64,000 bases of DNA from the IMG/VR virus record IMGVR_UViG_3300014913_000007, positions 1 through 64,000 of that record; one strand, given 5' to 3'. Below are positions 35,946 to 50,536 of the stretch, one piece after another (the first letter of the stretch is position 1; every line of letters starts with the position of its first letter). Both the position numbers and the translations under genes were made by a program. Source of the DNA: a virus. The notes below the pieces were generated by a model. That model did no database searches. It was not told where the DNA came from and was given only the letters and a program-made list of their open reading frames with translations.

Positions 35946-37133
35946 ATGACAGTTTTTAAGTTTAAAAAAGACAATATGAAAGTCCCATGTTTTATATGGC
36001 ACAATATGCGAACTTTTGATAAACAGGCATTGCAGCAAATAATTACTGCATCTAAATTACCTTTCATATTCCATCACACCTGTGTAATGGCTGACGGGCA
36101 CAAAGGGTATTCATTACCTATAGGAGGCGTAGTGGCCTGCTTAGGAGTAGTGTCTCCAGCTATGGTAGGTTTCGACCAAGGATGCGGTATGTTAGCTGTG
36201 AAAACAGGAATAAAGATTACTGAATTGAATAGAGAACTGTTAATTCGAATAAAAAAGTTAATAGAAACCCATGTTCCAGTAGGATTAGGTACTTATAACC
36301 AAACTCCACAGGAGTGGGAGGGATTTAACAATACACCAGATGATGTGGTAATTCAGAAACAACTACAATCTGCACGTTTCCAGTTGGGATCACTTGGATC
36401 GAATAATCACTTTTTAGAGATACAATCAGGTTCTGATGGTTACATTTGGTATATGATTCACTCTGGAAGTAGAAATCTAGGACATAAAGTAGCTACCCAC
36501 TACAACAAACTGGCCTTAAATTTAAATAAAAAATGGCATTCAGATATAAAAAGATTAAAAGGTGATGAACCTATGTCTTTCTTACCAGTAGACACTCAAG
36601 AAGGAGTGGATTTTATAACAGCTCTAGATTTTACATTAAAGTTCGCTCAAGCTAGTAGAGAGAATATGTCTAATAAGATTCAAGGTTGTATTACACAGGT
36701 ACTTAAATGTACATTTGAAAAACCTATAAATATACACCATAACTATGCAGCTCTAGAGAATCATTATGGTAAAAACGTTTGGGTACATCGGAAAGGGGCT
36801 ACTTCTGCTAAGAAAGGGCAATTGGGAATCATACCTGGATCTCAAGGCACTAAATCTTTTATAGTTAGAGGAAAGGGAAGTCAGGAGTCATTCACTTCCT
36901 GTAGTCACGGAGCTGGGAGAATTCTTGGAAGAAAGAAAGCAAAACAAACACTAAAGTTAAATGAAGAGTTGAAATTACTAGAAGATAAGGGAATCTTACA
37001 TTCAATAAAATCCAAGGCTAACTTGGATGAGTCACCTTCCGCTTACAAAGACATAGATATAGTCATGAAAGCGCAAAAAGACTTGGTAGATATAGTTGTA
37101 GAATTATCCCCTTTAGCAGTAGTTAAGGGCTAA
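35946..37133 (+). CDS. rtcB: RNA-splicing/repair ligase RtcB
   Basis: DGH.G...PIG, D.GCG, GS.NHF.E, HSGSR, HHN, HRKGA, SHGAGR, DESP.AYK. Confidence 0.95.
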   Translation: MTVFKFKKDNMKVPCFIWHNMRTFDKQALQQIITASKLPFIFHHTCVMADGHKGYSLPIGGVVACLGVVSPAMVGFDQGCGMLAVKTGIKITELNRELLIRIKKLIETHVPVGLGTYNQTPQEWEGFNNTPDDVVIQKQLQSARFQLGSLGSNNHFLEIQSGSDGYIWYMIHSGSRNLGHKVATHYNKLALNLNKKWHSDIKRLKGDEPMSFLPVDTQEGVDFITALDFTLKFAQASRENMSNKIQGCITQVLKCTFEKPINIHHNYAALENHYGKNVWVHRKGATSAKKGQLGIIPGSQGTKSFIVRGKGSQESFTSCSHGAGRILGRKKAKQTLKLNEELKLLEDKGILHSIKSKANLDESPSAYKDIDIVMKAQKDLVDIVVELSPLAVVKG

Positions 37134-37335: not shown

Positions 37336-38040
37336 TTAAGCTAGAGGATCAACTGCTATGTCCATTGCTGCCTCTGTGATAGTTTCTAAAACTCTCATAC
37401 AATTACCAAGCTTTTTAGCTCTTAGACATTCCTCTACTTCTCGTAATTTATTACTGAAGTTTATAAATCCTAAGGTTCCAGTAAATCCTATTAAACTATG
37501 AGTTAACCTTGCTGCTTTATCCCAATTACCTAAATCTACTGCCCTTCTGATTCTATACAGTTCAGTAGGTAAGTCCTCCTTACGAAGGTTTATAAGTTCT
37601 ATAAGTTTTTCAGGTAGATTATCAAGGTCTCCAGAGGTTGCATAGGTACATACTGTAAGATTCTTAGGCTCTACTTCAAGTTGCGGGAAGGCAGTTTTTA
37701 GAACTTCAAATAAATTCTTGTTTTCTAAAGGTTTATTTAGTACACCAGTAAATCCACGCTTTAGGTACTTTTTATTATCCAACTCAGCGGTCCAAGCTAT
37801 TATAGGACTAGTAACTCCTGCTTTTTTAGAGGCTCTTACTACACTTTCACCTGATGCGCCTCCTAATTGTAAGTCTACAAATGCTATGTCAAACTGTTTA
37901 GTAACTAACTGTTCTAATGCTTCTTTTGCGTTATCCACTTCCATTACTAAGGCCCCCATAGCACTTAGACGTTCTTCTAGGACGACCCTATTTACTTCGA
38001 TATCGTCTACTATTAGTACTCTCTTGTCATCTATTCGCAT
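37336..38040 (-). CDS. response-regulator receiver + HPt protein, leaderless
   Basis: VLIVDD, FVDLQL, WTA, NKP receiver motifs; HSLIG HPt motif; promoter at 38048-38075. Confidence 0.85.
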   Translation of the reverse strand: MRIDDKRVLIVDDIEVNRVVLEERLSAMGALVMEVDNAKEALEQLVTKQFDIAFVDLQLGGASGESVVRASKKAGVTSPIIAWTAELDNKKYLKRGFTGVLNKPLENKNLFEVLKTAFPQLEVEPKNLTVCTYATSGDLDNLPEKLIELINLRKEDLPTELYRIRRAVDLGNWDKAARLTHSLIGFTGTLGFINFSNKLREVEECLRAKKLGNCMRVLETITEAAMDIAVDPLA

Positions 38041-38436: not shown

Positions 38437-39771
38437 ATGGAACTTGAAAAAGTATTAAAATTACCTAATATACTCACCTTAAAAAAGATATTAGGTGTAA
38501 CTGCTGATTTACACCTAGTAGGTGGAGCTGTACGTGACATTCTTCTAGATAGAACCCCTAAAGACTTCGACTTTGCCACAGCTCTAACACCTGATGAAAT
38601 GATTCACATGCTTCAGATCAATTCAATAAGATGGATTCCGGTAGGTATTAGACGAGGTACGCTTGCTATAGTAATTAAGGGCGAAGTGTTTGAAGTTACA
38701 ACTTTTAGAGATCCTAGTCAAGAAACACAATTTACTAGCTCTATTGAAGAAGATCTCCCAGCTAGAGATTTTACAATTAATGCCATAGCTATCTCATTAA
38801 ATACTGGTAAATTAGTGGATCCTTTTAGGGGTGAAGAAGACTTAAAAAATAATGTGCTCAAAGCTGTAGGGAATCCAGAGAGGCGGTTTATGGAAGATCC
38901 TCACAGGATTTTAAGAATGCTACGGTTTGGTATAGGTCAAAATAGAAAAGTTGATCAAAAAACTAAAGTAACCGCCTATAAACTAGCTACATTAGTGGAA
39001 GGAATAAGTATTGAAAGAATAAGAGATGAGTTATCAAAAATACTAATAACCGATAATGCTTCAGAGGCATTTAAAGAACTTCTGGAAATGGGAATTCTTA
39101 ATATGTTCATACCTGAGCTTGTCTCTACTGTAAATATAAAACAAAATAAATGGCACTTATGGGACGTTTTTACACATATATTAAAAGTAGTAGATCTATG
39201 TCCAAAAGATAAGATAACTAGATTAGCAGCACTACTACATGATGTAGGTAAACCTCTATGCATATCTGAAGATGAAAATGGTAGGCACTTCCTGGAACAT
39301 GAGACTGTCAGTGCGAAGCTAGCAGAAGTTGTACTTAAGAGGCTTAAATTTCCAAGCAGGGAGATTGCAGAAGTAGTTACCTTGATACGAGAACACATGC
39401 GACCCATAGAGAACTGTAAGGGAAAAGCTATACGTAAAACTATGGTGAAGGTAGGAGATTTATTTCCAAAGTGGTTGGATCATAAGAAAGCTGACAAACT
39501 TGGTGGAATTAAAGGTTTAGATCCTGAAGCATTTGAAGTAGAGTGGAATGCGTTTTTAGCTAAAGTTACCCAAGAGCAGGAGAGGAAGCAAACTAGTAAG
39601 TTTGATAGTCTGGAAATATCTGGTAGAGATATTATGGCATTAGGAGTAGCTCAGGGACCTAATGTAGGAATTATCCTTTCAAAGCTGCAAGAGATAGTTA
39701 TAGATGATCCAGATTTTAATCAAAGAAGAGTGTTGATAGTCTTAGCTAGGAGAATTATCAATGGTCAGTAA
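38437..39771 (+). CDS. cca: CCA-adding tRNA nucleotidyltransferase / poly(A) polymerase with HD domain, leaderless
   Basis: VGGAVRD, DFDFAT, RDFTINA, EDP.RILR, LLHDVGK. Confidence 0.9.
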   Translation: MELEKVLKLPNILTLKKILGVTADLHLVGGAVRDILLDRTPKDFDFATALTPDEMIHMLQINSIRWIPVGIRRGTLAIVIKGEVFEVTTFRDPSQETQFTSSIEEDLPARDFTINAIAISLNTGKLVDPFRGEEDLKNNVLKAVGNPERRFMEDPHRILRMLRFGIGQNRKVDQKTKVTAYKLATLVEGISIERIRDELSKILITDNASEAFKELLEMGILNMFIPELVSTVNIKQNKWHLWDVFTHILKVVDLCPKDKITRLAALLHDVGKPLCISEDENGRHFLEHETVSAKLAEVVLKRLKFPSREIAEVVTLIREHMRPIENCKGKAIRKTMVKVGDLFPKWLDHKKADKLGGIKGLDPEAFEVEWNAFLAKVTQEQERKQTSKFDSLEISGRDIMALGVAQGPNVGIILSKLQEIVIDDPDFNQRRVLIVLARRIINGQ

Positions 39772-40651
39772 TATAAAGTTACTCCACGATAAAAAGTTAA
39801 TTACTCCTCCTAAATTCTTAGTAAAGAACGTACATTATGAAACTATTATAGGATCTATGGCTTATGGAGTGAATAAGGACGATTCTGATTATGATGTTTA
39901 CGGTATATGTATACCTCCTAAGGATATAGTGTTCCCGCATTTACAGGGAATTATACCAGAATTTGATGACTCTTATATCAAATTCGATCAGTGGCAAGAA
40001 CATCATATAATTGATGACAGTACTTCTAGGGAGTATGATTTTACAGTTTATAATGTGGTGAAGTTTTTCAAACTTGCCTCAAAATGTGTACCAAACATAG
40101 TTGATTCTCTTTTCACTCCTACTAACTGTGTATTACATCTGAGTAGGGTAGGTAATATAATCAGGGAGGATAGAAAACTATTTCTATGTAAGAAGATCTA
40201 TCATTCATACAGTGGATACGCATATCAGCAGTTGAGTAAGGCTAAAAAAGGTTCTAATAAAAGCAATCCTAAAAGGAAAAAAAGTATAGAAACTTATGGA
40301 TATGACGCAAAATTCTGCTATCATATTATTAGATTGGTAAACCAGGCAGAACAAATGTTAGTAGAGGGAGATTTAGATCTTCAGGCTAGTAGAAAGCAAT
40401 TAATGTCTGTAAGGAATGGAGAGTGGACTTTCGAACAAATAGAAGATTACTTTGAAAGTATTAGAATTAAGCTTTCTAACTTATATCAAACTTCTAATGC
40501 TTTGCCTGAAAAGATACAAAAAACTAAAATTAAAAATCTCCTATTAAAAGTTCTTGAAGAGAATTATGGATCAATAGATCAATGTGTTAAGATTTTAGAC
40601 AAAGATACTACTATTTTAAATCAAATACAAGAATTACTAAAAGGTAGGTAA
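39761..40651 (+). CDS. Pol-beta-family nucleotidyltransferase (RlaP-like)
   Basis: GS.AYG....SDYD, YDAK...H..RL. Confidence 0.8.
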   Translation: MVSNIKLLHDKKLITPPKFLVKNVHYETIIGSMAYGVNKDDSDYDVYGICIPPKDIVFPHLQGIIPEFDDSYIKFDQWQEHHIIDDSTSREYDFTVYNVVKFFKLASKCVPNIVDSLFTPTNCVLHLSRVGNIIREDRKLFLCKKIYHSYSGYAYQQLSKAKKGSNKSNPKRKKSIETYGYDAKFCYHIIRLVNQAEQMLVEGDLDLQASRKQLMSVRNGEWTFEQIEDYFESIRIKLSNLYQTSNALPEKIQKTKIKNLLLKVLEENYGSIDQCVKILDKDTTILNQIQELLKGR

Positions 40652-40936: not shown

Positions 40937-41428
40937 CTAAGAATAGGTAAGCTTTTCTACAATCAAAGGTATTTCATTTACAGTCTCAGGAAATTTGCGC
41001 TTTTTAGTCCTAACTAGTAACTTGACGGCCTCTTCTCCAGTGGCTGTAAAACTATGTAACGTCTTTACTATGAACATACCTGTAAACTGCCTAACCTGTA
41101 CAAGTGCTTCTACGGCCTTCATACTAGGTCTATATTTGTCTAGATCGGTTTTACTTCTGAAGATTCTATAATCTGCTATATCAAATATATTTGCCAATTC
41201 TTTTGCTCTTTTTATACCAATCCTTTCCTTAGATTCTAACCTACGCAGGGCAGAAACTCTCTTAATTCCTAACAAATTAGCTAATTGGTGTACATTCCAG
41301 CCTTTTGTGACTCTAAAAGCCTTTATTATGTAACCACTAAAGGGCTTTCCTTGCAACTTCTCCGTTGATATTAAATCCCAAGGAGTATTATGAACTAAAT
41401 TACGTTTATCGTCCAATCTAAGGATCAT
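40937..41428 (-). CDS. XRE-type HTH protein
   Basis: IKAFRVTKGWNVHQLANLLGI...LES. Confidence 0.7.
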   Translation of the reverse strand: MILRLDDKRNLVHNTPWDLISTEKLQGKPFSGYIIKAFRVTKGWNVHQLANLLGIKRVSALRRLESKERIGIKRAKELANIFDIADYRIFRSKTDLDKYRPSMKAVEALVQVRQFTGMFIVKTLHSFTATGEEAVKLLVRTKKRKFPETVNEIPLIVEKLTYS

Positions 41429-41679
41429 CTTTCAGGTTTACACACTAGTACAGGTCTGATGAGTAGAATCCACATCCAAAACAAAACAAATGCCTTACCA
41501 TAAGTCAAAATGGGTAATCCAAAATCTGCCATTGTAAAATTCCAACCAAATTTAAATAACAAAGGAATACCAAGAACAAGGCTACCCATAACAAATAAAA
41601 ATAGTAGAGTATATACTAATATCAGCACTATCTCTAGTAAAGTAAAAATTACCTCGTCTCTTTCCATTCTTTTCCCCAA
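41425..41679 (-). CDS. membrane protein
   Basis: hydrophobic segments. Confidence 0.6.
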   Translation of the reverse strand: MGKRMERDEVIFTLLEIVLILVYTLLFLFVMGSLVLGIPLLFKFGWNFTMADFGLPILTYGKAFVLFWMWILLIRPVLVCKPER

Positions 41680-41876
41680 ACTTCAAAACAAGTCCTTAAA
41701 CCATTATTAAGTGTCTTAATTGGTCTAGATTTAATAACTCTAGAAATTCTAAATATAGCCTTATTGCCTCCACCTAATTTGATCTGTATTACTTTTCCAG
41801 GTAAAAACTTACTGGGTGTGGCTGTATTGAATAGGATTCTCTCTCCGCTTAGATTGCAAATAATTCTTTCTAACAT
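41649..41876 (-). CDS. hypothetical phage protein
   Basis: AAGGAGG SD; TTGACG..TATAAT promoter upstream. Confidence 0.7.
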   Translation of the reverse strand: MLERIICNLSGERILFNTATPSKFLPGKVIQIKLGGGNKAIFRISRVIKSRPIKTLNNGLRTCFEVWGKEWKETR

Positions 41877-41943
41877 AAATCCTCCTTACTTAAGTATCTA
41901 CTTAAATTATTATAGACTTTTTCAACTTTTACGTCAATAGCTC

Positions 41944-41972
41944 TTGCTATATTAATAAAAAAATGCTATTCT
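41944..41972 (+). promoter_or_regulatory. sigma70-type promoter of S2 gene
   Basis: TTGCTA-N17-TATTCT with TG extension. Confidence 0.6.
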
Positions 41973-42023
41973 TAATAAGAATTAATTTTAACACTAAAAT
42001 AACCATGTGCAGGAAATTTAAAA

Positions 42024-42908
42024 ATGATTAATACTAACGCAGATACCTTTGAAACTACTAAAAAAGTAAACAAAAAAGCTCTTAGAAGAAAAGAAAGAGA
42101 AAGAAGACAAGCAGAAAAAAGAGCAAAAGAGAATTTGGTCTATAAACGTATCAGTATTAAAACTATGCTAGAAAATGGTGCCCATTTCGGTCATGACAAG
42201 CAGTATTGGAATCCAAAAATGGCAGTAAACCTGTACGGAACTCGAAATGATGTACATGTTATTAATCTTAGAAGAACATTAGAACTTTGGGCGAGGGTGG
42301 ATGAGTTGATTACTAAGGAAACCGCAAAAGGTAAAACTATTTTATTTGTAGGTACTAAGCAAGCAGCCCGTGATATAGTCCAAAAAGAAGCTGAAAGATG
42401 TGGGTTTTTCTACATGACACACAAATGGCCTGGAGGAGTACTTACTAACTTTAACACTATTAGAAGCTCTATTAAACGAATGGTGGACTTAGAAAAGTTT
42501 ATAAAAAAGGTAGAATCACCAAAATCAAGAATTAAAATAGGTAAAAAAGAACTACTATTTAAACATAGAGAGCTAGAAAAGTTGCAAAAAGTGTTTGACG
42601 GTGTACGAGAAATGAAGGAACTTCCTGATATGGTATTCGTTGTAGATGCCATAGAAGATCGTATTGCTATCACCGAAGCAAGAAAACTCGCTATTCCAGT
42701 AATAGGTTTGGCAGATTCTAATGTGGACCCAAGCCTGTTAGATTATCCAATTCCTGCTAATGATGATGCACGAGGAACAATAAACCTCTTCGTGTCCAAC
42801 GTTGCTGAATCTGCACTAACTGGAAGAAGGATGTACCAAGAAAAGATGGATAAAATAGCCATTGAAAATGCAGAAAAAGCAGAAAACATTATTAAAAACT
42901 TAGAATAG
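42024..42908 (+). CDS. rpsB: 30S ribosomal protein S2 homologue with basic N-terminal extension
   Basis: GAHFGH, WNPKM, LFVGTK, W.GG.LTN, D.N.DP, IPANDD motifs. Confidence 0.95.
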   Translation: MINTNADTFETTKKVNKKALRRKERERRQAEKRAKENLVYKRISIKTMLENGAHFGHDKQYWNPKMAVNLYGTRNDVHVINLRRTLELWARVDELITKETAKGKTILFVGTKQAARDIVQKEAERCGFFYMTHKWPGGVLTNFNTIRSSIKRMVDLEKFIKKVESPKSRIKIGKKELLFKHRELEKLQKVFDGVREMKELPDMVFVVDAIEDRIAITEARKLAIPVIGLADSNVDPSLLDYPIPANDDARGTINLFVSNVAESALTGRRMYQEKMDKIAIENAEKAENIIKNLE

Positions 42909-43047
42909 AAGTATAAAACCTAATAAATACATATAACTAAGTATAAACAAAATAAATAAATTAATTACATTATTTACCTAAAGTTTTCCAAGATTCTGTC
43001 GATAATACTATTAAGCGAAACAAACAACTTTAAGGAGTTTAATAGTA

Positions 43048-43836
43048 ATGATAAACCGTATAACAAGTATTCTTAAATACAATAACTTACAAAACTCAGA
43101 TAGTATACTCCAGGAACAGAGAGATCCTATTAAAACATCTGATAGATATAATAAAATAGATCACTTAGATATCATTGAAAAATTTAACCAACATGGTTGG
43201 TACATAGTAGACTATCAACAGTTAAAACCTCAAAAAAATGAACGTAGTAAGTATGTTAGGTGGCTGGCAACTTATCAAAATATTGATTTCCAACCTGCTG
43301 GAGAAGAAGCTATTCCACAGATACTTCATCAGGGCAGTCACGATGGTACTAAACCTTTCATACTAAATTATGGTTTATTTAATGTATCCAAACTAAACAG
43401 TGTTGTGGTGGGAGAAAAATCCTTCTCTCCAGTATATCAGAAACATGTTGGAGATGTTCCAGAAGATTTTGAAAGTGCTATGAAGTCTGTAGTAGTGGAA
43501 GTAACTGAATCTATCATATCCACTGTCAAAATGTTTCAGTCTAAAGTATTGTCTGAGGCCCAGGTTAGTGAGTTTGTTCAAGAAGCTTCAGCAATTAGAT
43601 TCTCTCCTGACAAGTATAGCATACCTAATCCAGAATTGTTTTCTATTGGAAGTACTGATAGTCTTTGGTCACTGTTTAATCAAGTACAAAAAAAACTAAC
43701 TTCAGCAGATAGTCTTAAAGTAACTATAAAAAATAGCGGAAAGACTAGAAAAGCCAAACCTCTAAATAATATAGAAGCCTGTATGTGTTTAAAGAAAGAA
43801 CTCTGGAATCTAACTTTAGGCTATCTAGTTAAATAA
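43048..43836 (+). CDS. DUF932-like protein
   Basis: SDRY..I, SHDGT, H.G, SLWSLFN.VQ; promoter at 42979-43005. Confidence 0.75.
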   Translation: MINRITSILKYNNLQNSDSILQEQRDPIKTSDRYNKIDHLDIIEKFNQHGWYIVDYQQLKPQKNERSKYVRWLATYQNIDFQPAGEEAIPQILHQGSHDGTKPFILNYGLFNVSKLNSVVVGEKSFSPVYQKHVGDVPEDFESAMKSVVVEVTESIISTVKMFQSKVLSEAQVSEFVQEASAIRFSPDKYSIPNPELFSIGSTDSLWSLFNQVQKKLTSADSLKVTIKNSGKTRKAKPLNNIEACMCLKKELWNLTLGYLVK

Positions 43837-43863: not shown

Positions 43864-45450
43864 ATGAAACACATTAAAGATAAGTGTATATCAATATTAA
43901 ATAAATTTAAGGGCAACCCAAATGTAAACTTCAATCCCTTAGACTTTACTCCCAATCCAATTATAGATATTGATTTAAAAGGTAACATTATATATTTGAA
44001 TCCAAACATACAAGAACTATTTCCATCACTATCGCAAGAATCTTTAAGTCATCCATACTTAGAGGATATAGTGAAATGGTTAAGAATGGTACAAAATGAT
44101 ATGTATGCAAAACCACACACTAAATCATGGTTTAGAGAAGTGAAGGTTGATAGTCAATATTATGAACAAGTATTTCAAAAAACACAGAAATCAGGAATAA
44201 CTAGAATATATGGAACCAATATAAGTAAAAAAGTAAATAAGCTTAACAAACTGACTGAGGAAAGGAACCAAGCAAACGAATTAACTAAGTTAAAAAGTGA
44301 GTTCATAGCTAATATGAGTCATGAAATTAGAACTCCTATGAGTGGTATTATAGGAATTGCCGACATTCTACTTGAAACAGATCTAACAAAAAGTCAAAAT
44401 AGTTACTTAGCAATGCTAAAAGACTCTTCTAAACATCTTTTATTTATACTTAATGATTTGCTGGATCTCTCAAAAGCAGAAACTGGCAAATTGGAGGTTC
44501 TAAAAGAAAAATTTAACTTTAATAAATCTATCGGACACTTGGTAGCTCAATTTAAAGTTACTGCTGAGGAAAAAAATCTACAATTTGAGACAACTATAGA
44601 CTCGAATATACCTAAAGAATTGGTTGGTGATTCTGTAAGACTTACACAGATACTGATTAACTTGTTAGGTAATGCTTTTAAGTTCACTCCTGAGAGTGGA
44701 AGTGTATTATTAGAAGTATTGATAGAAAAAGAATTAAAAGATTCAATAATTCTTCAATTTAAAGTACAAGACTCCGGTATTGGAATACCCCTAAATAAAC
44801 AAAAAGATATACTAAAAGCATTTATTCAAGCAGACAGTTCAGTTACCAAGAAATATGGAGGTACTGGATTAGGATTAGCTATTACTAGTTCCCTGTTGGA
44901 GTTAATGGATTCTAGCCTAAAATTAGTAAGTACTGAAGGTAACGGATCAACTTTTTCCTTCTCACTCAAAGTATTGAAACCTGAAAAAAAAGATAAGGAA
45001 GTACCAGTAAATAATGAAGACTTGAAAAAAATACTAAATAAAGCAAAAACGGTTAAAAATACATATGACATATTGATTGTGGAAGATGATGAAGTTAATA
45101 AAAAGATAGCAAACTATGTCCTCGCAGAGGCAGGACATACAGTTAAAACTGCATCAAATGGTTTGGAGTGCATGGAATTAGTAAAGAAACATGTATTTGA
45201 CTTAATACTGATGGACTGTCAAATGCCTGAAATGGACGGATTTGAAGCTGTAACTGCAATACGTCAAAGGGAACGTATACTAGGTGTAAGAGTACCTATT
45301 ATAGCCCTTACAGCCCTTGCTATGAAAGATGATAAAGACAAATGCCTTGAAGTGGGTATGGATGTATATATTAGAAAGCCATTCGAAAAGGTTAAGCTAC
45401 TTAAGATGATAGAAAAATTAATTGAAAAATCTAGAAAAATTGACAAATAG
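43864..45450 (+). CDS. hybrid sensor histidine kinase (PAS-like, HisKA, HATPase, REC)
   Basis: MSHEIRTPM, NLLGNAFKFT, DSGIGI, GGTGLGL, LMDCQMP; no obvious TM. Confidence 0.95.
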   Translation: MKHIKDKCISILNKFKGNPNVNFNPLDFTPNPIIDIDLKGNIIYLNPNIQELFPSLSQESLSHPYLEDIVKWLRMVQNDMYAKPHTKSWFREVKVDSQYYEQVFQKTQKSGITRIYGTNISKKVNKLNKLTEERNQANELTKLKSEFIANMSHEIRTPMSGIIGIADILLETDLTKSQNSYLAMLKDSSKHLLFILNDLLDLSKAETGKLEVLKEKFNFNKSIGHLVAQFKVTAEEKNLQFETTIDSNIPKELVGDSVRLTQILINLLGNAFKFTPESGSVLLEVLIEKELKDSIILQFKVQDSGIGIPLNKQKDILKAFIQADSSVTKKYGGTGLGLAITSSLLELMDSSLKLVSTEGNGSTFSFSLKVLKPEKKDKEVPVNNEDLKKILNKAKTVKNTYDILIVEDDEVNKKIANYVLAEAGHTVKTASNGLECMELVKKHVFDLILMDCQMPEMDGFEAVTAIRQRERILGVRVPIIALTALAMKDDKDKCLEVGMDVYIRKPFEKVKLLKMIEKLIEKSRKIDK

Positions 45451-45501: not shown

Positions 45502-46650
45502 ATGTCCAACTTTTCAGCGCCCGTAGTAGAATTCACTATTGAAAAACACCCCAATGCCGACTTACTCTCTATAGCACACGTAGAAGGATGGCAATGTATT
45601 GTAAAGACTGCAGATTTTAAAAATGAAACATTAGGTGTATATGTACCCTTAGACGCTGTAGCAGATAAGGATCATCCTCTACTTGACTTCATGAACGGAA
45701 AGAAGGTAAAAACTATAAAGCTTAGAAAAGTAATCTCTCAAGGTATCTTACTTCCATTGTCCACTGTGGAAAAGTTCGTAAGAAGTAAGGGGTACCAGGA
45801 GACCCTCCAGGTAGGAGATGATTTACATACACTTCTAGAGCTTAAAAAGTGGGAGCCTGTATTTAAGCCTCAAGGACTAAATGTCTCTGGTGGTAGTGAG
45901 GCTTACCTAGAATCTCCTGGATGGATGGGTAAGTATACTGACATAGAAAATTGGAATAATCACCCTAATACAATAAAAGAGGGAGAAATAGTGAGTATTA
46001 CCGAAAAGTTACACGGATCCAGTGCAAGATACGGAATCGTGGATGGTGAATTCTACGTAGGTTCTAGGAATAGAATTTTAAGGTTAGATCCATACATCTC
46101 AAGAATGGATCAACGTAAATGGGATTCACGACCTTTCTTTCAAAGATTCAAGGATTTTATATTGAGAAAGAAAGTTAAACTTACTACACCTAGGGAAACA
46201 GTCTGGACTAAGATAGCTAGAAAACAAGGAATACGTAGTAAACTAAGGTATTTATCCTTTAACTTTGCGGAAGGTGGTAATGTAGCTATTTACGGTGAAA
46301 TAGTTGGTCCTGGGGTACAGGATCTTGAATACGGACTAGAGGAAGTAGATCTATACCTTTACGATATAAGAATTGAAGGTAGGAGTGGAGATAAATACAT
46401 AAGTCCTCCAGAGTTTAGGGAAATGGCAGGTAATATCAAGCTAAAAACTGTACCACTATTGAAGGAAGGCCCTTTCGAATTAGCTGATTTGGAGCTTAGG
46501 AAGGGTAAAGACACTATTAATACTAAGCATGTGCGAGAAGGTATCGTTATAGAGCCTACAAAGCTTCAGTTTGACAAGGGATTAGGTAGGGTAATACTTA
46601 AGAGGGTATCAGAAAATTACCTTCTTAGAAAGAATGGGACTGACTATTAA
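45502..46650 (+). CDS. ATP-dependent RNA ligase (Rnl5/DraRnl-like)
   Basis: HPNAD.L N-terminal OB domain, TEKLHGSS, GEIVG, REGIV, LK.VS..YL. Confidence 0.88.
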   Translation: MSNFSAPVVEFTIEKHPNADLLSIAHVEGWQCIVKTADFKNETLGVYVPLDAVADKDHPLLDFMNGKKVKTIKLRKVISQGILLPLSTVEKFVRSKGYQETLQVGDDLHTLLELKKWEPVFKPQGLNVSGGSEAYLESPGWMGKYTDIENWNNHPNTIKEGEIVSITEKLHGSSARYGIVDGEFYVGSRNRILRLDPYISRMDQRKWDSRPFFQRFKDFILRKKVKLTTPRETVWTKIARKQGIRSKLRYLSFNFAEGGNVAIYGEIVGPGVQDLEYGLEEVDLYLYDIRIEGRSGDKYISPPEFREMAGNIKLKTVPLLKEGPFELADLELRKGKDTINTKHVREGIVIEPTKLQFDKGLGRVILKRVSENYLLRKNGTDY

Positions 46651-47390: not shown

Positions 47391-48488
47391 GTGATCAAAA
47401 CAGATACTATAACTAAAACACCTAAAAAGTCAAAAAAATCAACTACTAAAACAAAAAGCAAAACAAAACCAACTAAAAAAGTAACTAAATCTACTAAGAA
47501 AACTGATTATAAATTTGTAAATTACTTTCAATCAGAACCTCAACTAGACGAAATAACACATAAATCTGACCCAGAAGATATCCTTAATGCTTATGAAAGA
47601 ATTATATGGGTTACAGCTAAAAAACACTACAAAATGGGAAGAACATCTACCGAACTAGAGGATTTAATCGCTCAAGGTCAATTAGGTGTGTGTGAAGCTA
47701 TAAAAAGATACAAAAACCCAAACACTAGACCAAGATATAAATTTCACATGCTATGTTTATATAATATACGTGATTATATCTTTAAGTATTGTATCCGTAA
47801 TGTAAATCAATTAAAAACTCCTGTTTACATTCAAAGAGAACTAATGCATGTAGCTCAAATATTTCAATTAATGAATAACCAAACAGTGGCAGAAGCTATC
47901 TTAAAGAGAGAAGGTCCGTCTACTGAAAGTGAAATAATAGCATTCATCTATGATGAAGATGAAAGATTGCCTTTAAAATCAAAAACTTTTATAAAGAAGC
48001 AGATTAATAAAAAAGTAAATAAAAAAGAATTCGAACAAATATATAATGGAATTATAAGTCATGAATTAGGAAGTAGACACTCCTATGTAAAAAATAATTT
48101 AAGTGATGTTGGGAAAATACTACATATTAAAGAAAAAATTTGGTACACTTTTAAAAGTAATAATATGAAATATGAAAGAGGAATTAAACTTATCCTCTCT
48201 GCTAAACAATCTCAAGACTCATTAGATGCTGCAATACACTCACCCATACCAAAGGAAGTAATAGAACAAAACGTAGCACAAAAACAATTAATAGATCATG
48301 GATCTAAGATATGTGGTAAATTAAACTTTAGAATACTATTTGAAAATAAGTGCATGGATATGAACTATGCAGAAATATCTAAAACACACAATATTAAAAA
48401 AAACATGGTAACGGATATAATCAAAAAATCTATAAAATTATTGCAAAAAGATCCAGTGTTCCAAGAAATGTTTAAGGAGCTATTTTAA
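47391..48488 (+). CDS. sigma70-family RNA polymerase sigma factor
   Basis: region 2 (EDLIAQGQLGVCEAIKRY...KF...IR) and region 4 HTH (YAEISK....V..I....IK.L). Confidence 0.8.
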   Translation: MIKTDTITKTPKKSKKSTTKTKSKTKPTKKVTKSTKKTDYKFVNYFQSEPQLDEITHKSDPEDILNAYERIIWVTAKKHYKMGRTSTELEDLIAQGQLGVCEAIKRYKNPNTRPRYKFHMLCLYNIRDYIFKYCIRNVNQLKTPVYIQRELMHVAQIFQLMNNQTVAEAILKREGPSTESEIIAFIYDEDERLPLKSKTFIKKQINKKVNKKEFEQIYNGIISHELGSRHSYVKNNLSDVGKILHIKEKIWYTFKSNNMKYERGIKLILSAKQSQDSLDAAIHSPIPKEVIEQNVAQKQLIDHGSKICGKLNFRILFENKCMDMNYAEISKTHNIKKNMVTDIIKKSIKLLQKDPVFQEMFKELF

Positions 48489-49507
48489 TGACAGTGACTA
48501 TATTAGAGGTTGGAGATCCAGCTATTCCTGTAGTAAATGCGGATTACCTAGATCCAGTAACCGACACTGAAATGACCTTCCCAACTCAAGGTATAGTTGG
48601 TACAGTATTAAAAAGTGAAACTTATGGTAATTATGTAGAAAGTGATGAACCTATCTATCAATATCTATTAACTTTTGACCCTCCCGTCGAGACGACAGCA
48701 GATGTAGTCACAGCCGACGATGATGGAATAGAAACTTCTAACCAGCAGCTATTTACAGCATCTGAAATATGGTTTTCAGATGTGGACTTAGGATTATCGG
48801 ATGAAGTAGACCCTTTCGAATTGGATAGTCAGGCTATTCAAAATACAATAGATGAAGGTAAACAGAGGTCCACAGCTAATTTATCTACAGTTCAAAGTAT
48901 AAGTGCATCTGTAGGGCAGGAGGATGTAGTAAATACTTCTGATTATGGAGGGCCAGATATATTGGCCTCTTCAGATACATTAACTGCCTTAGTTGGAACA
49001 TTAGATAATATTGAGGATGTAAATGGGAAAACAAGTGATGAAATAGACAACCAAGCTTACAAATATGAGAAAGAAGCTAGCAGTGTTGCAGACAACTCCG
49101 ATATCTTTGCTGAGTATGTAGATAATTTATACTCACAGAGGCAAGTGGAGCAAGAAAAGGAGGATGAGAGACATCGATATTCTGAGCAAGGTGCAGAACA
49201 GCAACAACAAGCAGACGTAGAAGATGCTCAAAACTCGAAGGAATATTATGATGCACACATAGACTTAGGACATTTGGAAAATCCTTTCACACTAACTGAA
49301 AATTTTGATGAGTATAACCTATCAGAGGAGGCTGAAGAGACTCTACTAGATTCCATTGAGGAAGTAGTTAATAATCTAAATAGTAGCTTATTAGGACCCG
49401 ATGATCCAGCTCCTACACTTTTTACAATAGAAAGAACTACTAGCACTGTACAACCAGAACCAGAATCAACTAGTTACCCTACATCTCCAGAAGAAGCAGA
49501 AGAATAG
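48488..49507 (+). CDS. very acidic hypothetical protein
   Basis: 339-aa ORF coupled to sigma gene. Confidence 0.75.
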   Translation: MTVTILEVGDPAIPVVNADYLDPVTDTEMTFPTQGIVGTVLKSETYGNYVESDEPIYQYLLTFDPPVETTADVVTADDDGIETSNQQLFTASEIWFSDVDLGLSDEVDPFELDSQAIQNTIDEGKQRSTANLSTVQSISASVGQEDVVNTSDYGGPDILASSDTLTALVGTLDNIEDVNGKTSDEIDNQAYKYEKEASSVADNSDIFAEYVDNLYSQRQVEQEKEDERHRYSEQGAEQQQQADVEDAQNSKEYYDAHIDLGHLENPFTLTENFDEYNLSEEAEETLLDSIEEVVNNLNSSLLGPDDPAPTLFTIERTTSTVQPEPESTSYPTSPEEAEE

Positions 49508-49564: not shown

Positions 49565-50536
49565 ATGGACATAATAAAGAACATACAAGTACCGACTGGA
49601 AACATACTTATAGTATCTGGAGATAAAGGAAACTTAGAATTCCTATCTATTGGGGATTACGGAAAAGAAGCCAATTTGAAGTGTGACGCTTTGGGACTAA
49701 CTAGGGAAATAGGTAAGGTCCAACACGTTGAAATGTTACCACTATCTGAAAAGTGGGTAATAACTGTGTCAACTCAATATGGTTGCTCGATGAACTGTAC
49801 ATTTTGTGATGTACCTAAGGTTGGTCCTGGTATAAATGTGACTCTCGATGATCTTATCCAACAAATATCACTAGGTTTAGGGCTACATCCTGAAGTGAAA
49901 AGTGGGAAAAGATTGAACGTTCACTATGCCAGGATGGGGGAACCTACCTTTAATCCTGAAGTTCTAAGATCAGCCTATGCATTACAACTATTACTAAAGG
50001 ATTTTGATACTGTTCACCCAGTTGTATCCACTATGATGCCCAAAAATAATAAATTCTTAAAGAAATTTCTAAATGAGTGGATGTATATAAAGAATGAAAT
50101 TTTTCAGGGGGAGGCTGGCCTACAGTTGAGTTTAAATAGTACCTGTGAGCAAGAAAGAAAACTAATGTTCTCTGGTAATTCTTTAAGTCTATCAGATATT
50201 TCAGATGTAGTTTCAGCTTATAGACCTAAAGGTAGAAAGATTACACTAAATTTTGCTGTTGCAGACTACACTATAGATCCGAGTGTACTATTGAAATATT
50301 TTGATCCTAAATACTTTATAATAAAACTTACACCTATGCATAAAACTCATACTGCCTTAAAGAACAGTATAAAAACTAATGGAGATTACACAACTTTTTA
50401 TCCATATAAACAACACGAAAAAACACTTAAGTCTGTTGGATATGATGTATTAGTATTTATAGCATCTGTAGAAGAGGACCTAGGTAGAATAACTTGTGGT
50501 AATGCTATACTATCAGGATCTACTCCAGATTACTAA
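49565..50536 (+). CDS. RlmN/Cfr-like radical SAM RNA methyltransferase, leaderless
   Basis: STQYGCSMNCTFC, MGEP, LSLNS, C-terminal CG; promoter at 49531-49558. Confidence 0.8.
   Translation: MDIIKNIQVPTGNILIVSGDKGNLEFLSIGDYGKEANLKCDALGLTREIGKVQHVEMLPLSEKWVITVSTQYGCSMNCTFCDVPKVGPGINVTLDDLIQQISLGLGLHPEVKSGKRLNVHYARMGEPTFNPEVLRSAYALQLLLKDFDTVHPVVSTMMPKNNKFLKKFLNEWMYIKNEIFQGEAGLQLSLNSTCEQERKLMFSGNSLSLSDISDVVSAYRPKGRKITLNFAVADYTIDPSVLLKYFDPKYFIIKLTPMHKTHTALKNSIKTNGDYTTFYPYKQHEKTLKSVGYDVLVFIASVEEDLGRITCGNAILSGSTPDY

Follow-up and report, generated by a model that had tools for sequence, protein, structure and literature searches.

The ribosomal protein uS2 joins the 30S subunit late. Its place is at the mRNA exit side, where it lies between the head and the body of the subunit and serves as the anchor of bS1. 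In a screen for which 106 profiles, including PF00318 (Ribosomal_S2), were run against 424,225 viral contigs, the viral ribosomal proteins bS21, bL12, HPF, bL31, bL33, uS9, bS6, uL11, uS15, bL19, bS20, uL10 and uL2 were listed, as well as bL9 in isolates, and no uS2 (Mizuno 2019). Huge phages encode S4, S1, S21 and L7/L12, and basic N-terminal extensions are described for their S21 proteins (Al-Shayeb 2020, PMC7162821). PhiMa05 is credited with bS1, bL21, bL27, bL33, uL11 and uL1. Here we describe a uS2 gene on a stretch of 64,000 nucleotides (the window), which is the first 64 kb of the IMG/VR virus record IMGVR_UViG_3300014913_000007 (G000; 153,389 bp, linear, CheckV completeness 78%). The encoded protein joins the known class of virus-encoded ribosomal proteins. 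It is absent from the published surveys examined (the three lists above), as suspected in the original prediction, which was made from the sequence alone and had called a viral S2 unusual; full-text searches of the literature for a phage-encoded S2 or uS2 gave nothing relevant.

The open reading frame (ORF) encodes a complete and intact uS2 (P0001, Table 1). Residues 48-267 match the whole PF00318 profile (positions 1-216 of 216, E-value 2.5e-74, 249.6 bits at a cut-off of 26.1). In a phmmer search against PDB sequences the best matches are bacterial S2 chains from Pseudomonas aeruginosa (5e-65), Thermus (6e-61) and E. coli (about 1e-57). An AlphaFold2 model, built from a 59-sequence alignment, has a mean predicted local distance difference test score (pLDDT) of 94.4 and exhibits the two-part fold of uS2, an alpha/beta globular domain with a protruding coiled-coil hairpin. 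Foldseek matched it to ribosome-bound S2 with a probability of 1.0, target-normalised template modelling scores of 0.91-0.96 and root mean square deviations (rmsd) of 1.1-1.9 Å. Profile match, best solved relatives and predicted fold together bear out the full S2 core which had been read from the letters. In the alignment the universal S2 residues (E. coli His15, His18, Trp23 and Asp188/Asn203/Asp204/Asp205) are all kept as H54, H57, W62, D231, N246, D247 and D248. Behind the core a C-terminal tail extends the helix 250-293. The tail motif DKIAxENExKAExFI is common to the five closest viral S2s, and K277, E281, N282, A286, I290 and L293 are invariant in the alignment.

The gene is flanked by genes for a CCA-adding/poly(A)-polymerase-type enzyme, RlaP, a PQ-loop protein, a helix-turn-helix (HTH) protein, two small ORFs, a DUF932 protein, a hybrid histidine kinase and an RNA ligase. 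In cellular rpsB operons tsf lies downstream, whereas the DUF932 gene follows the phage S2. Neither tsf nor pyrH adjoins it, and no S21, S1 domain or EF-Ts (tsf) was found in the 153-kb record, so that the first description of the gene as flanked by phage genes and not by tsf was correct. A word-indexed protein search revealed the close relatives P0002 (71% identity), P0003 (62%), P0004 (50%) and P0005 (46%); the other matches are at most 51% identical and restricted to the core, and the nearest cellular S2 likewise does not exceed 51%. Four contigs of relatives (L007, L010, L013 and L014), which originate from different samples, show the same S2 neighbourhood. Both small divergent ORFs recur in L013 and L014, the PQ-loop gene recurs in L013, and the flanking genes of these two contigs are 47-62% identical. 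With L010 seven genes are shared, S2 being followed by the DUF932 homologue, RtcB, a sigma-like protein, its partner and a reverse 291-aa gene, and with L007 twelve collinear genes (30-58% identity). S2 (46-71%) has diverged on the scale of the neighbouring phage genes (30-66%); this match with the other shared genes fits vertical inheritance since before the phages split. In comparison with P0002, the ratio of nonsynonymous to synonymous substitutions (dN/dS) is about 0.07 for the whole gene, 0.05 for the core and about 0.25 for the first 40 codons, which encode an N-terminal extension; as dS is saturated, these ratios are rough. Judged by these comparisons, S2 has long been conserved under purifying selection in the phage lineage and is not a chimera.

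A profile search of 1.84 billion representatives revealed only P0004 from the close clade (490 bits), followed by proteins at 305-350 bits and then by the bulk. In a 113-row tree P0001-P0005 and P0122-P0124 are monophyletic (Shimodaira-Hasegawa-like approximate likelihood ratio test, SH-aLRT, 98) and lie inside a 20-row group (98). This group is separated from every one of the 78 named genomes, which belong to Pseudomonadota, Acidobacteriota, Bacillota, Bacteroidota and other lineages. In a 75-row tree these eight viral S2s are again monophyletic (98) within a cellular group (99) and inside no sampled subclade; their monophyly was found in three trees (SH-aLRT 98-99). The surroundings of all eight genes are rich in ORFans and contain no tsf. 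The neighbours of P0122 and P0124, again without tsf, are small ORFans and dCMP deaminases, and L100, the contig of P0122, is regarded as a related phage because it contains five copies of the promoter CTAAAGTT-N14-CGATA that fills the window. The outer members P0125 and P0127 are located in rpsB-tsf-pyrH-frr-uppS-cdsA-dxr operons and are cellular. Named cellular relatives are Candidatus Dadabacteria (P0130, P0274, P0344), Oligoflexia (P0308) and a metagenome-assembled genome labelled 'Deltaproteobacteria' (P0366). The donor can only be placed roughly, in that the S2 sequence is like those of Dadabacteria- or Oligoflexia-type lineages. The comparison with bacterial rpsB proposed in the original prediction, from which the host lineage was also expected, revealed a virus-only clade within a cellular group (98/99); as to the host, the S2 tree nests the viral clade in no named group, and the ESM Atlas pointed to no decisive lineage. 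Another viral branch may be formed by P0134, P0139 and P0145; no tsf follows P0145, but the contigs are short.

The contacts of bS1 on E. coli uS2 were described by cryo-electron microscopy (cryo-EM). Phe32 stacks on S1 Phe5 and Phe9, Met6 and Arg7 contact S1 Gln7 and Glu10, His18, which is reported to be 100% conserved in the Pfam S2 alignment, stacks on S1 Phe79, and a Zn pocket formed by Asp188/Asn203/Asp204/Asp205 takes S1 Lys43 (PMC10123108). A salt bridge between Arg208 and S1 Asp39 is seen in the crystal chimera 4TOI and not in the later cryo-EM structure (PMC10123108). These contacts had been given essentially correctly in the original prediction, since Phe32, the pocket and Arg208 are all named in that paper, and the two altered motifs it reported, WNPKM-AVNLY and NDDARG, are present as stated. 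In our alignment Phe32 corresponds to Tyr71 of the phage protein, Met6/Arg7 to Ile45/Lys46, Pro29 to Val68, Phe30 to Asn69 and Arg208 to Gly251. A second change escaped the first reading: the motif RWLGG reads KWPGG in the phage uS2, with Pro136 at the position of Leu97.

Residue frequencies (E. coli numbering) were compared between the eight viral S2s, 124 related cellular S2s and 239 other bacterial S2s. Position 32 is Tyr in all eight viral proteins; the cellular relatives mostly have Tyr (79) or Phe (42), and the others Phe (179) or Tyr (58). Position 30 is Tyr in seven viral proteins and Asn in one, and Asn also occurs in 10 of the 124 cellular relatives. At position 208 the viral proteins contain Gly (six), Leu (one) or Thr (one), whereas the residue is basic in every cellular relative (98 Arg, 26 Lys) and in 222 of the 239 others. 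At position 97, the Leu of RWLGG, five viral proteins have Pro and three Val; Leu is found in 124/124 cellular relatives and 222/239 others. His18 is His in all 124 cellular relatives and in 233 of the 239 other bacteria. From the fold topology, the Leu97 loop should share a sheet edge with His18 and the Zn pocket. The phage uS2 retains an aromatic residue at 32, His18 and the Zn pocket and has no basic residue at 208. The first claim that the changes fall on the S1 surface holds for Arg208 (0/8 viral against 124/124 cellular residues basic) but not for AVNLY, where Phe32 is replaced by the common Tyr, and Asp205 is intact together with the rest of the pocket and His18. On the strength of the alignment, the loss of Arg208 in NDDARG is a real, virus-specific signature of the clade; AVNLY is not significant.

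Among 48 related IMG/VR records, all of which encode a 516-aa protein described below, S2 was found in only one, G030 (259,994 bp, 95% complete), and it is missing from three related records rated 100% complete (269-298 kb). The G030 protein carries the changes His15Phe, His18Thr, Phe32Leu, Leu97Lys, Asp204Thr, Asp205Ser and Arg208Ser and a basic insertion after the WNPK motif. Its branch is too long (5.3) to be placed, and it may or may not go back to the same capture as the eight-member clade. P0134 and P0139 are also without His18 and without a basic residue at 208. As far as the sequences tell, the changes all point one way: residues in contact with S1 are lost in viral copies and never in cellular ones, and the window protein stands at the mild end. 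A tblastn search of the GenBank phage records (INPHARED) gave 10 core-only matches (32-44% identity), none from the clade, which from their record titles look like host contamination or mislabelled entries. In IMG/VR a single-sequence pattern scan gave no S2 match and a profile scan four core-only matches, none of them from the clade; two lie at contig ends and two group with Bacillota S2s in the 113-row tree. The survey of viral databases suggested at the outset thus revealed no clade member in the scans of INPHARED and IMG/VR, and the S2 of G030 among the 48 related records.

In comparison to E. coli S2 the phage protein is extended at its N-terminus by 39-40 residues (E. coli M9/L10 align with M48/L49), slightly fewer than the 42 or so counted before; the Lys/Arg-rich helix proposed at the same time agrees with the predicted structure and with the charge (13 Lys and Arg, 6 Asp and Glu). 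Such an E/R/K-rich composition would be typical of stable single alpha-helices. There is no in-frame start between 42024 and Met48, and a start at Met48 would remove the conserved N-terminal strand. P0002, the closest relative and also 294 aa long, keeps the extension from about residue 12 onward (KKVNKKALRRKER). Because no alternative start fits, and because of this conservation and the dN/dS of about 0.25, we regard the extension as translated.

The extension was at first viewed as a phage novelty, which turned out to be wrong. Measured to the column of E. coli Val4, its median length is 25.5 residues in the viral clade, 25.5 in the 124 cellular relatives and 3 in the 239 other bacterial S2s, and 122 of the 124 nearest cellular S2s are extended by at least 15 residues. 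Its net charge is +7 in P0001 and +8 in P0002 and ranges from 0 to -4 in the remaining six members of the clade; in all 124 cellular relatives it stays below +5. The original prediction was to stand or fall with the question whether host-type S2s share the extension and the substitutions; they share the extension and neither the basic charge nor the change of Arg208. These comparisons indicate that the extension was inherited from the donor lineage and is not an invention of the phage, only the strongly basic form being derived. By the same comparisons the helix became basic recently, within the P0001/P0002 sub-lineage, and this is not the reason why the clade keeps S2. The extension begins exactly where the S1 N-terminal helix contacts uS2 (the Met6/Arg7 positions). 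The idea that it mimics this S1 helix was dropped, as the S1 helix is acidic and aromatic and the phage helix basic.

A sigma70-type promoter precedes the gene. Its arrangement is kept in the two closest relatives, L013 (TTGCAC-17-TATTCT) and L014 (TTGCAA-17-TATGAT), and the call is based on this conservation; a generic promoter scan of the region, with 9 sites found and 7.5 expected, was not above chance. The promoter proposed earlier for S2 is supported by the former result and not by the latter. Transcription is predicted to start near 41979 with a leader of about 45 nt. The leader region (41978-42040) folds at -2.4 kcal/mol (z 0.57), no better than shuffles, and an Rfam search of 41000-43200 (E<=1) gave no match, S2-leader types included. 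An inverted repeat overlapping the -10 box is a candidate operator (Table 1), and an HTH protein is encoded nearby.

The next gene has a promoter of its own, which is sigma28-like, and no terminator was found between S2 and this promoter. The corresponding motif, CTAAAGTT-N14-15-CCGATA, drives much of the window (9500-53700) and also occurs in the related contigs L007, L010, L013, L014 and L100. In 11 of its 25 occurrences, 7-8 nt separate the end of its -10 element (CCGATA) from the start codon; of 23 sigma70-like promoters, 6 have a -10 element whose end is 6-8 nt away from the ATG. Genes with a -10 element 6-8 nt from the start are candidates for leaderless mRNAs. A Shine-Dalgarno (SD) core 4-mer at -18 to -5 is present in 54% of the ORFs compared to 9% in the background, from which it follows that the host uses SD pairing. 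E. coli ribosomes deficient in uS2 are also without bS1 and bS21 and translate the leaderless lambda cI mRNA better (PMC10491246). It is attractive to connect the leaderless phage genes with a modified uS2, but this is only a correlation within one genome.

Taken as a whole, we consider it somewhat more probable than the contrary that the phage owns a functional uS2, which replaces the host uS2 and retunes the S1/mRNA-exit platform. This explanation builds on the observed identity, fold, viral context, conservation, selection and site changes of the protein, and its incorporation into ribosomes, the timing of its expression and its effect on S1 and mRNA choice would take the following form. 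An ancestor of this group of large phages would have captured uS2 once, long ago, from a Dadabacteria- or Oligoflexia-type bacterium, and the gene would then have been inherited vertically under purifying selection. It would be transcribed from the sigma70-type promoter into a leadered mRNA, probably by unmodified host RNA polymerase and hence early. The product may take the place of uS2 on host 30S subunits, keeping the fold residues and the main S1 anchors and being without the basic residue at Arg208 and the near-invariant Leu97. In the P0001/P0002 sub-lineage a strongly basic, rigid helix would be added exactly where the S1 helix docks. The protein also has a conserved C-terminal helix. 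Ribosomes with the phage uS2 would have an altered S1/mRNA-exit platform, by which initiation could be biased to the phage messages, a mix of SD-led and apparently leaderless ones.

Several points weigh against this explanation. The main S1 anchors are kept (the aromatic at 32, His18, the Zn pocket and Ile/Lys at Met6/Arg7), and S1 may still bind. The salt bridge of Arg208 is the contact that the cryo-EM structure does not show (PMC10123108) and is disputed. The extension goes back to the donor lineage, and its charge differs among the viral copies (-4 to +8); it can therefore not be the conserved functional core of the clade. S2 is rare in the wider phage family, which makes it accessory and not essential. 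Finally, Pfam and PHROG searches with about 30 large ORFs revealed no capsid, portal or clear terminase.

A more far-reaching version, which we hold to be unlikely, assumes specialised ribosomes. The viral uS2 would hold bS1 poorly and perhaps reposition bS21 and the anti-SD, so that S1-dependent host mRNAs are disfavoured while leaderless or strong-SD phage mRNAs are still translated. The stepwise loss of S1 contacts would be the trace of this process (all eight are without Arg208 and Leu97, P0134 and P0139 without His18, and G030 without nearly the whole site), and the basic helix would fill or guard the vacated site of the S1 helix.

At the other end, the gene could be a plain supply gene, a suggestion we likewise regard as doubtful. 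The phage S2 would equal the host protein and, as part of a translation-maintenance kit, only keep uS2 available for 30S maturation and exchange once host transcription or mRNA has been shut off. The intact core, Zn pocket, His18 and aromatic at 32 are in agreement with this, as are the inheritance of the extension from the donor lineage and the presence in the genome of at least 23 tRNAs, RtcB, an RNA ligase, the CCA-adding-type enzyme and RlaP, several of which adjoin S2. However, Arg208 and Leu97, where the 124 cellular relatives are invariant, are changed in all eight viral copies, the strongly basic helix is derived, and the further erosion of S1-contact residues in G030, P0134 and P0139 looks like a change of function or partner.

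An extraribosomal role appears quite improbable. E. coli uS2 represses its own rpsB-tsf mRNA, and the phage protein could mimic this autorepressor and shut host rpsB-tsf, act as decoy for a ribosome-directed defence or toxin, or be the partner of a phage enzyme. The conserved C-terminal helix and the variable N-terminus could serve such other partners. But the whole rRNA-binding fold, the hairpin included, is strongly constrained, as the dN/dS of the core and the small rmsd to ribosome-bound S2 indicate, and ribosome binding is the simplest explanation for that; moreover, neither an autoregulatory structure nor an Rfam match was found in the phage S2 leader.

Still less credit is given to the view that the record is another large extrachromosomal element or a cellular fragment and S2 simply a cellular gene. 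It draws on the missing capsid, portal and terminase matches, to which the searches of the 153-kb record with Pfam Terminase_6N, Phage_capsid and Phage_sheath_1 added none, and a published Comment on PhiMa05 warns of the same error of mistaking non-phage sequence for phage (PMC13623518). Against it, IMG/VR and CheckV call the record viral, and the 22% of the genome that are missing may hold the head genes. The record has 34% G+C, 90% coding sequence and genes in strand blocks. PHROG matches include a DnaB-like helicase, primase, DNA polymerase and UvsX-like recombinase, i.e. a phage-type replication module, as well as ribonucleotide reductase, exonuclease, thymidylate synthase, a DNA methyltransferase, several HNH/homing endonucleases, RtcB and a Lon-like protease. 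The tRNA arrays cover 17 amino-acid specificities according to ARAGORN, with none for Met, Trp and Ser, and S2 has no other ribosomal or housekeeping neighbour (tsf, S21 and S1 are absent). 'Terminase' PHROG matches on two P-loop helicase/PhoH-like proteins were set aside as probably generic ATPase matches.

Also relevant here is the family-wide 516-aa all-beta protein encoded at the contig end. It has 56 full-length homologues (37-67% identity) and is conserved across a large family of uncultured phages of 100-300 kb. Its relatives are encoded on 64 IMG/VR contigs, which are as long as 298 kb and one of which has direct terminal repeats; relatives of the record reach 260-298 kb. In its model (pLDDT 91.2) residues 35-157 match the outer domain of the tail-sheath proteins of the myophages Pa193, E217 and XM1 (Z 11.8-13.2, rmsd 2.3-2.5 Å over 112-118 residues). 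This match is at domain level only, and flagellar FliD and flagellin domains match the same domain at Z of about 9. The record is very distant from cultured phages: its DNA polymerase is only about 24% identical to that of the nearest one, and tblastn of three ORFs without assignment against phages gave no match. Among the genes tested, that of a radical-SAM protein comes closest by far to a cultured phage, with 54% full-length identity to a gene of Bacteroides phage Versailles. On the whole, these features mark the record as a large tailed phage, in which Pfam and PHROGs recognised no head genes.

That S2 is an assembly chimera or a recent functionless passenger of host DNA, which the contamination-like INPHARED records and the two IMG/VR matches at contig ends (as host flanks would be) might suggest, is close to refuted already by the synteny in at least four independent assemblies from different samples, the divergence like that of the neighbours, the dN/dS of about 0.07 and the distance to the nearest cellular S2, so that the question raised in the original prediction, whether the gene is phage-borne or a host fragment, is answered in favour of the phage.

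Coordinates of all features are collected in Table 1. S2 lies within a cluster of RNA-repair and tRNA-maintenance genes, to which RtcB, the RNA ligase with its OB domain, the CCA-adding/poly(A)-polymerase-type enzyme with its HD domain and the nucleotidyltransferase RlaP belong. A receiver-Hpt protein and the hybrid histidine kinase form a two-component phosphorelay, an unusual phage cargo. A divergent sigma-factor-like gene and the gene of its 339-aa partner, start and stop of which overlap by one base, are kept near S2 in L007 and L010 (54-62% and 31-33% identity). Elsewhere in the record, proteins with beta-propeller/Kelch-like and CarboxypepD_reg domains adjoin two giant ORFs; this region is probably a tail or fibre module.

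Table 1. Features of the uS2 locus and of the record it belongs to (window positions, which equal those of G000, unless another contig is named).
Feature	Position	Strand	Remarks
uS2 coding sequence	42024-42908	+	ATG to stop; 294 aa; no internal stops
N-terminal extension, residues 1-40	42024-42143	+	alignment to E. coli S2
K/R/E-rich helix, residues 17-36	42072-42131	+	AlphaFold2 pLDDT 81-93
Canonical S2 core, residues 48-267	42165-42824	+	alpha/beta domain and coiled-coil hairpin (helices 143-164, 174-194); Pfam, AlphaFold2
C-terminal tail, residues 268-294	42825-42905	+	extends helix 250-293; pLDDT 91-98
Sigma70-type promoter of S2	41944-41972	+	TTGCTA (41944-41949), 17-nt spacer, TATTCT (41967-41972), TG at 41964-41965
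Inverted repeat, candidate operator	41968-41982	.	ATTCTTA-A-TAAGAAT, overlaps -10 box; L013 has ATTCTA-GAG-TAGAAT there
Weak Shine-Dalgarno core AGGA	42011-42014	+	9 nt before ATG; A/U-rich unstructured leader
Sigma28-like promoter	42978-43005	+	CTAAAGTT ... TCGATAA; promoter of DUF932 gene
DUF932 protein	43048-43836		gene next to S2
Two small divergent ORFs	41425-41876	-	84 and 75 aa; homologues flank S2 in L013/L014; blastp identity 47-59%
HTH protein	40937-41428	-	near candidate operator
RtcB ligase	35946-37133
Receiver-Hpt protein	37336-38040	-	phosphorelay
CCA-adding/poly(A)-polymerase-type enzyme	38437-39771		HD domain
RlaP nucleotidyltransferase	39761-40651
Hybrid histidine kinase	43864-45450	+	PAS-like, HisKA, HATPase and receiver domains
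RNA ligase	45502-46650		OB domain
Sigma-factor-like protein and 339-aa partner	47391-49507		sigma-factor-like protein: phrog_351, E 1.4e-9, no Pfam match
Radical-SAM protein	49565-50536
Sigma28-like close-start genes (examples)	9772-, 10186-, 13780+, 14899-, 16643+, 30173+, 33127+, 38040-, 38437+, 49565+, 53259+		sign gives strand; candidate leaderless mRNAs
Sigma70-type close-start genes (examples)	12167+, 19211+		sign gives strand; candidate leaderless mRNAs
tRNA genes, 23 in four arrays	G000 76111-77518, 85554-93058 (L002 12111-13518; L003 1554-9058)		ARAGORN
Giant ORF, 2463 aa	G000 122447-129838	-
Giant ORF, 1777 aa	G000 130223-135556	-	no Pfam or PHROG match
516-aa all-beta protein	G000 151433-152983 (= L006 7433-8983)	-	contig end
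S2 homologue of G030	L170 1417-2346		309 aa, 174 bits; fold-wide profile match kept

The viral ribosomal proteins described so far are mostly small and loosely bound (bS21, bL12, bL31, bL33). uS2, in contrast, is a structural protein of 26-33 kDa which bridges head and body of the 30S subunit and is the landing pad for the mRNA-catching bS1. The phage uS2 widens the catalogue of virus-owned translation genes. Kept for long and changed where cellular relatives never vary, it offers a natural experiment on how the S1/uS2/bS21 platform controls mRNA initiation. It also raises the question whether the swap of one protein makes 'specialised ribosomes', and touches the link with leaderless translation, which rpsB mutants opened and never closed.

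Compared to bacterial uS2 from E. coli or P. aeruginosa, the phage protein has the same full-length domain and fold and keeps all universal invariants. It differs by Gly for Arg208, Pro for Leu97 and Asn for Phe30, by its 40-aa basic N-terminal helix and 27-aa helical C-terminal tail, and in being phage-encoded without the tsf partner. With the Dadabacteria- and Oligoflexia-type S2s it shares the presence of an N-terminal extension, a three-residue insertion at the hairpin tip, Trp at TLxxW and long C-terminal tails, whereas these cellular proteins are encoded in rpsB-tsf-pyrH-frr operons, always have Lys or Arg at 208 and Leu97, and are without a strongly basic extension. Like the proteins listed by Mizuno and Al-Shayeb, the phage uS2 is encoded by a single ribosomal protein gene on a phage genome, is under purifying selection, surface-exposed and late-binding, and it resembles the phage bS21 of Al-Shayeb in that its N-terminus is extended by a basic stretch close to the mRNA exit/anti-SD region. 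In contrast to the small exchangeable proteins of these lists it is much larger (294 aa) and docks bS1. The uS2-deficient E. coli mutants rpsB1 and rpsB11 provide a functional analogy only: there an altered uS2 shifts S1/bS21 occupancy and favours leaderless mRNA (PMC10491246), and the phage has many leaderless-looking genes, but its uS2 would be added or would replace the host protein and is not depleted.

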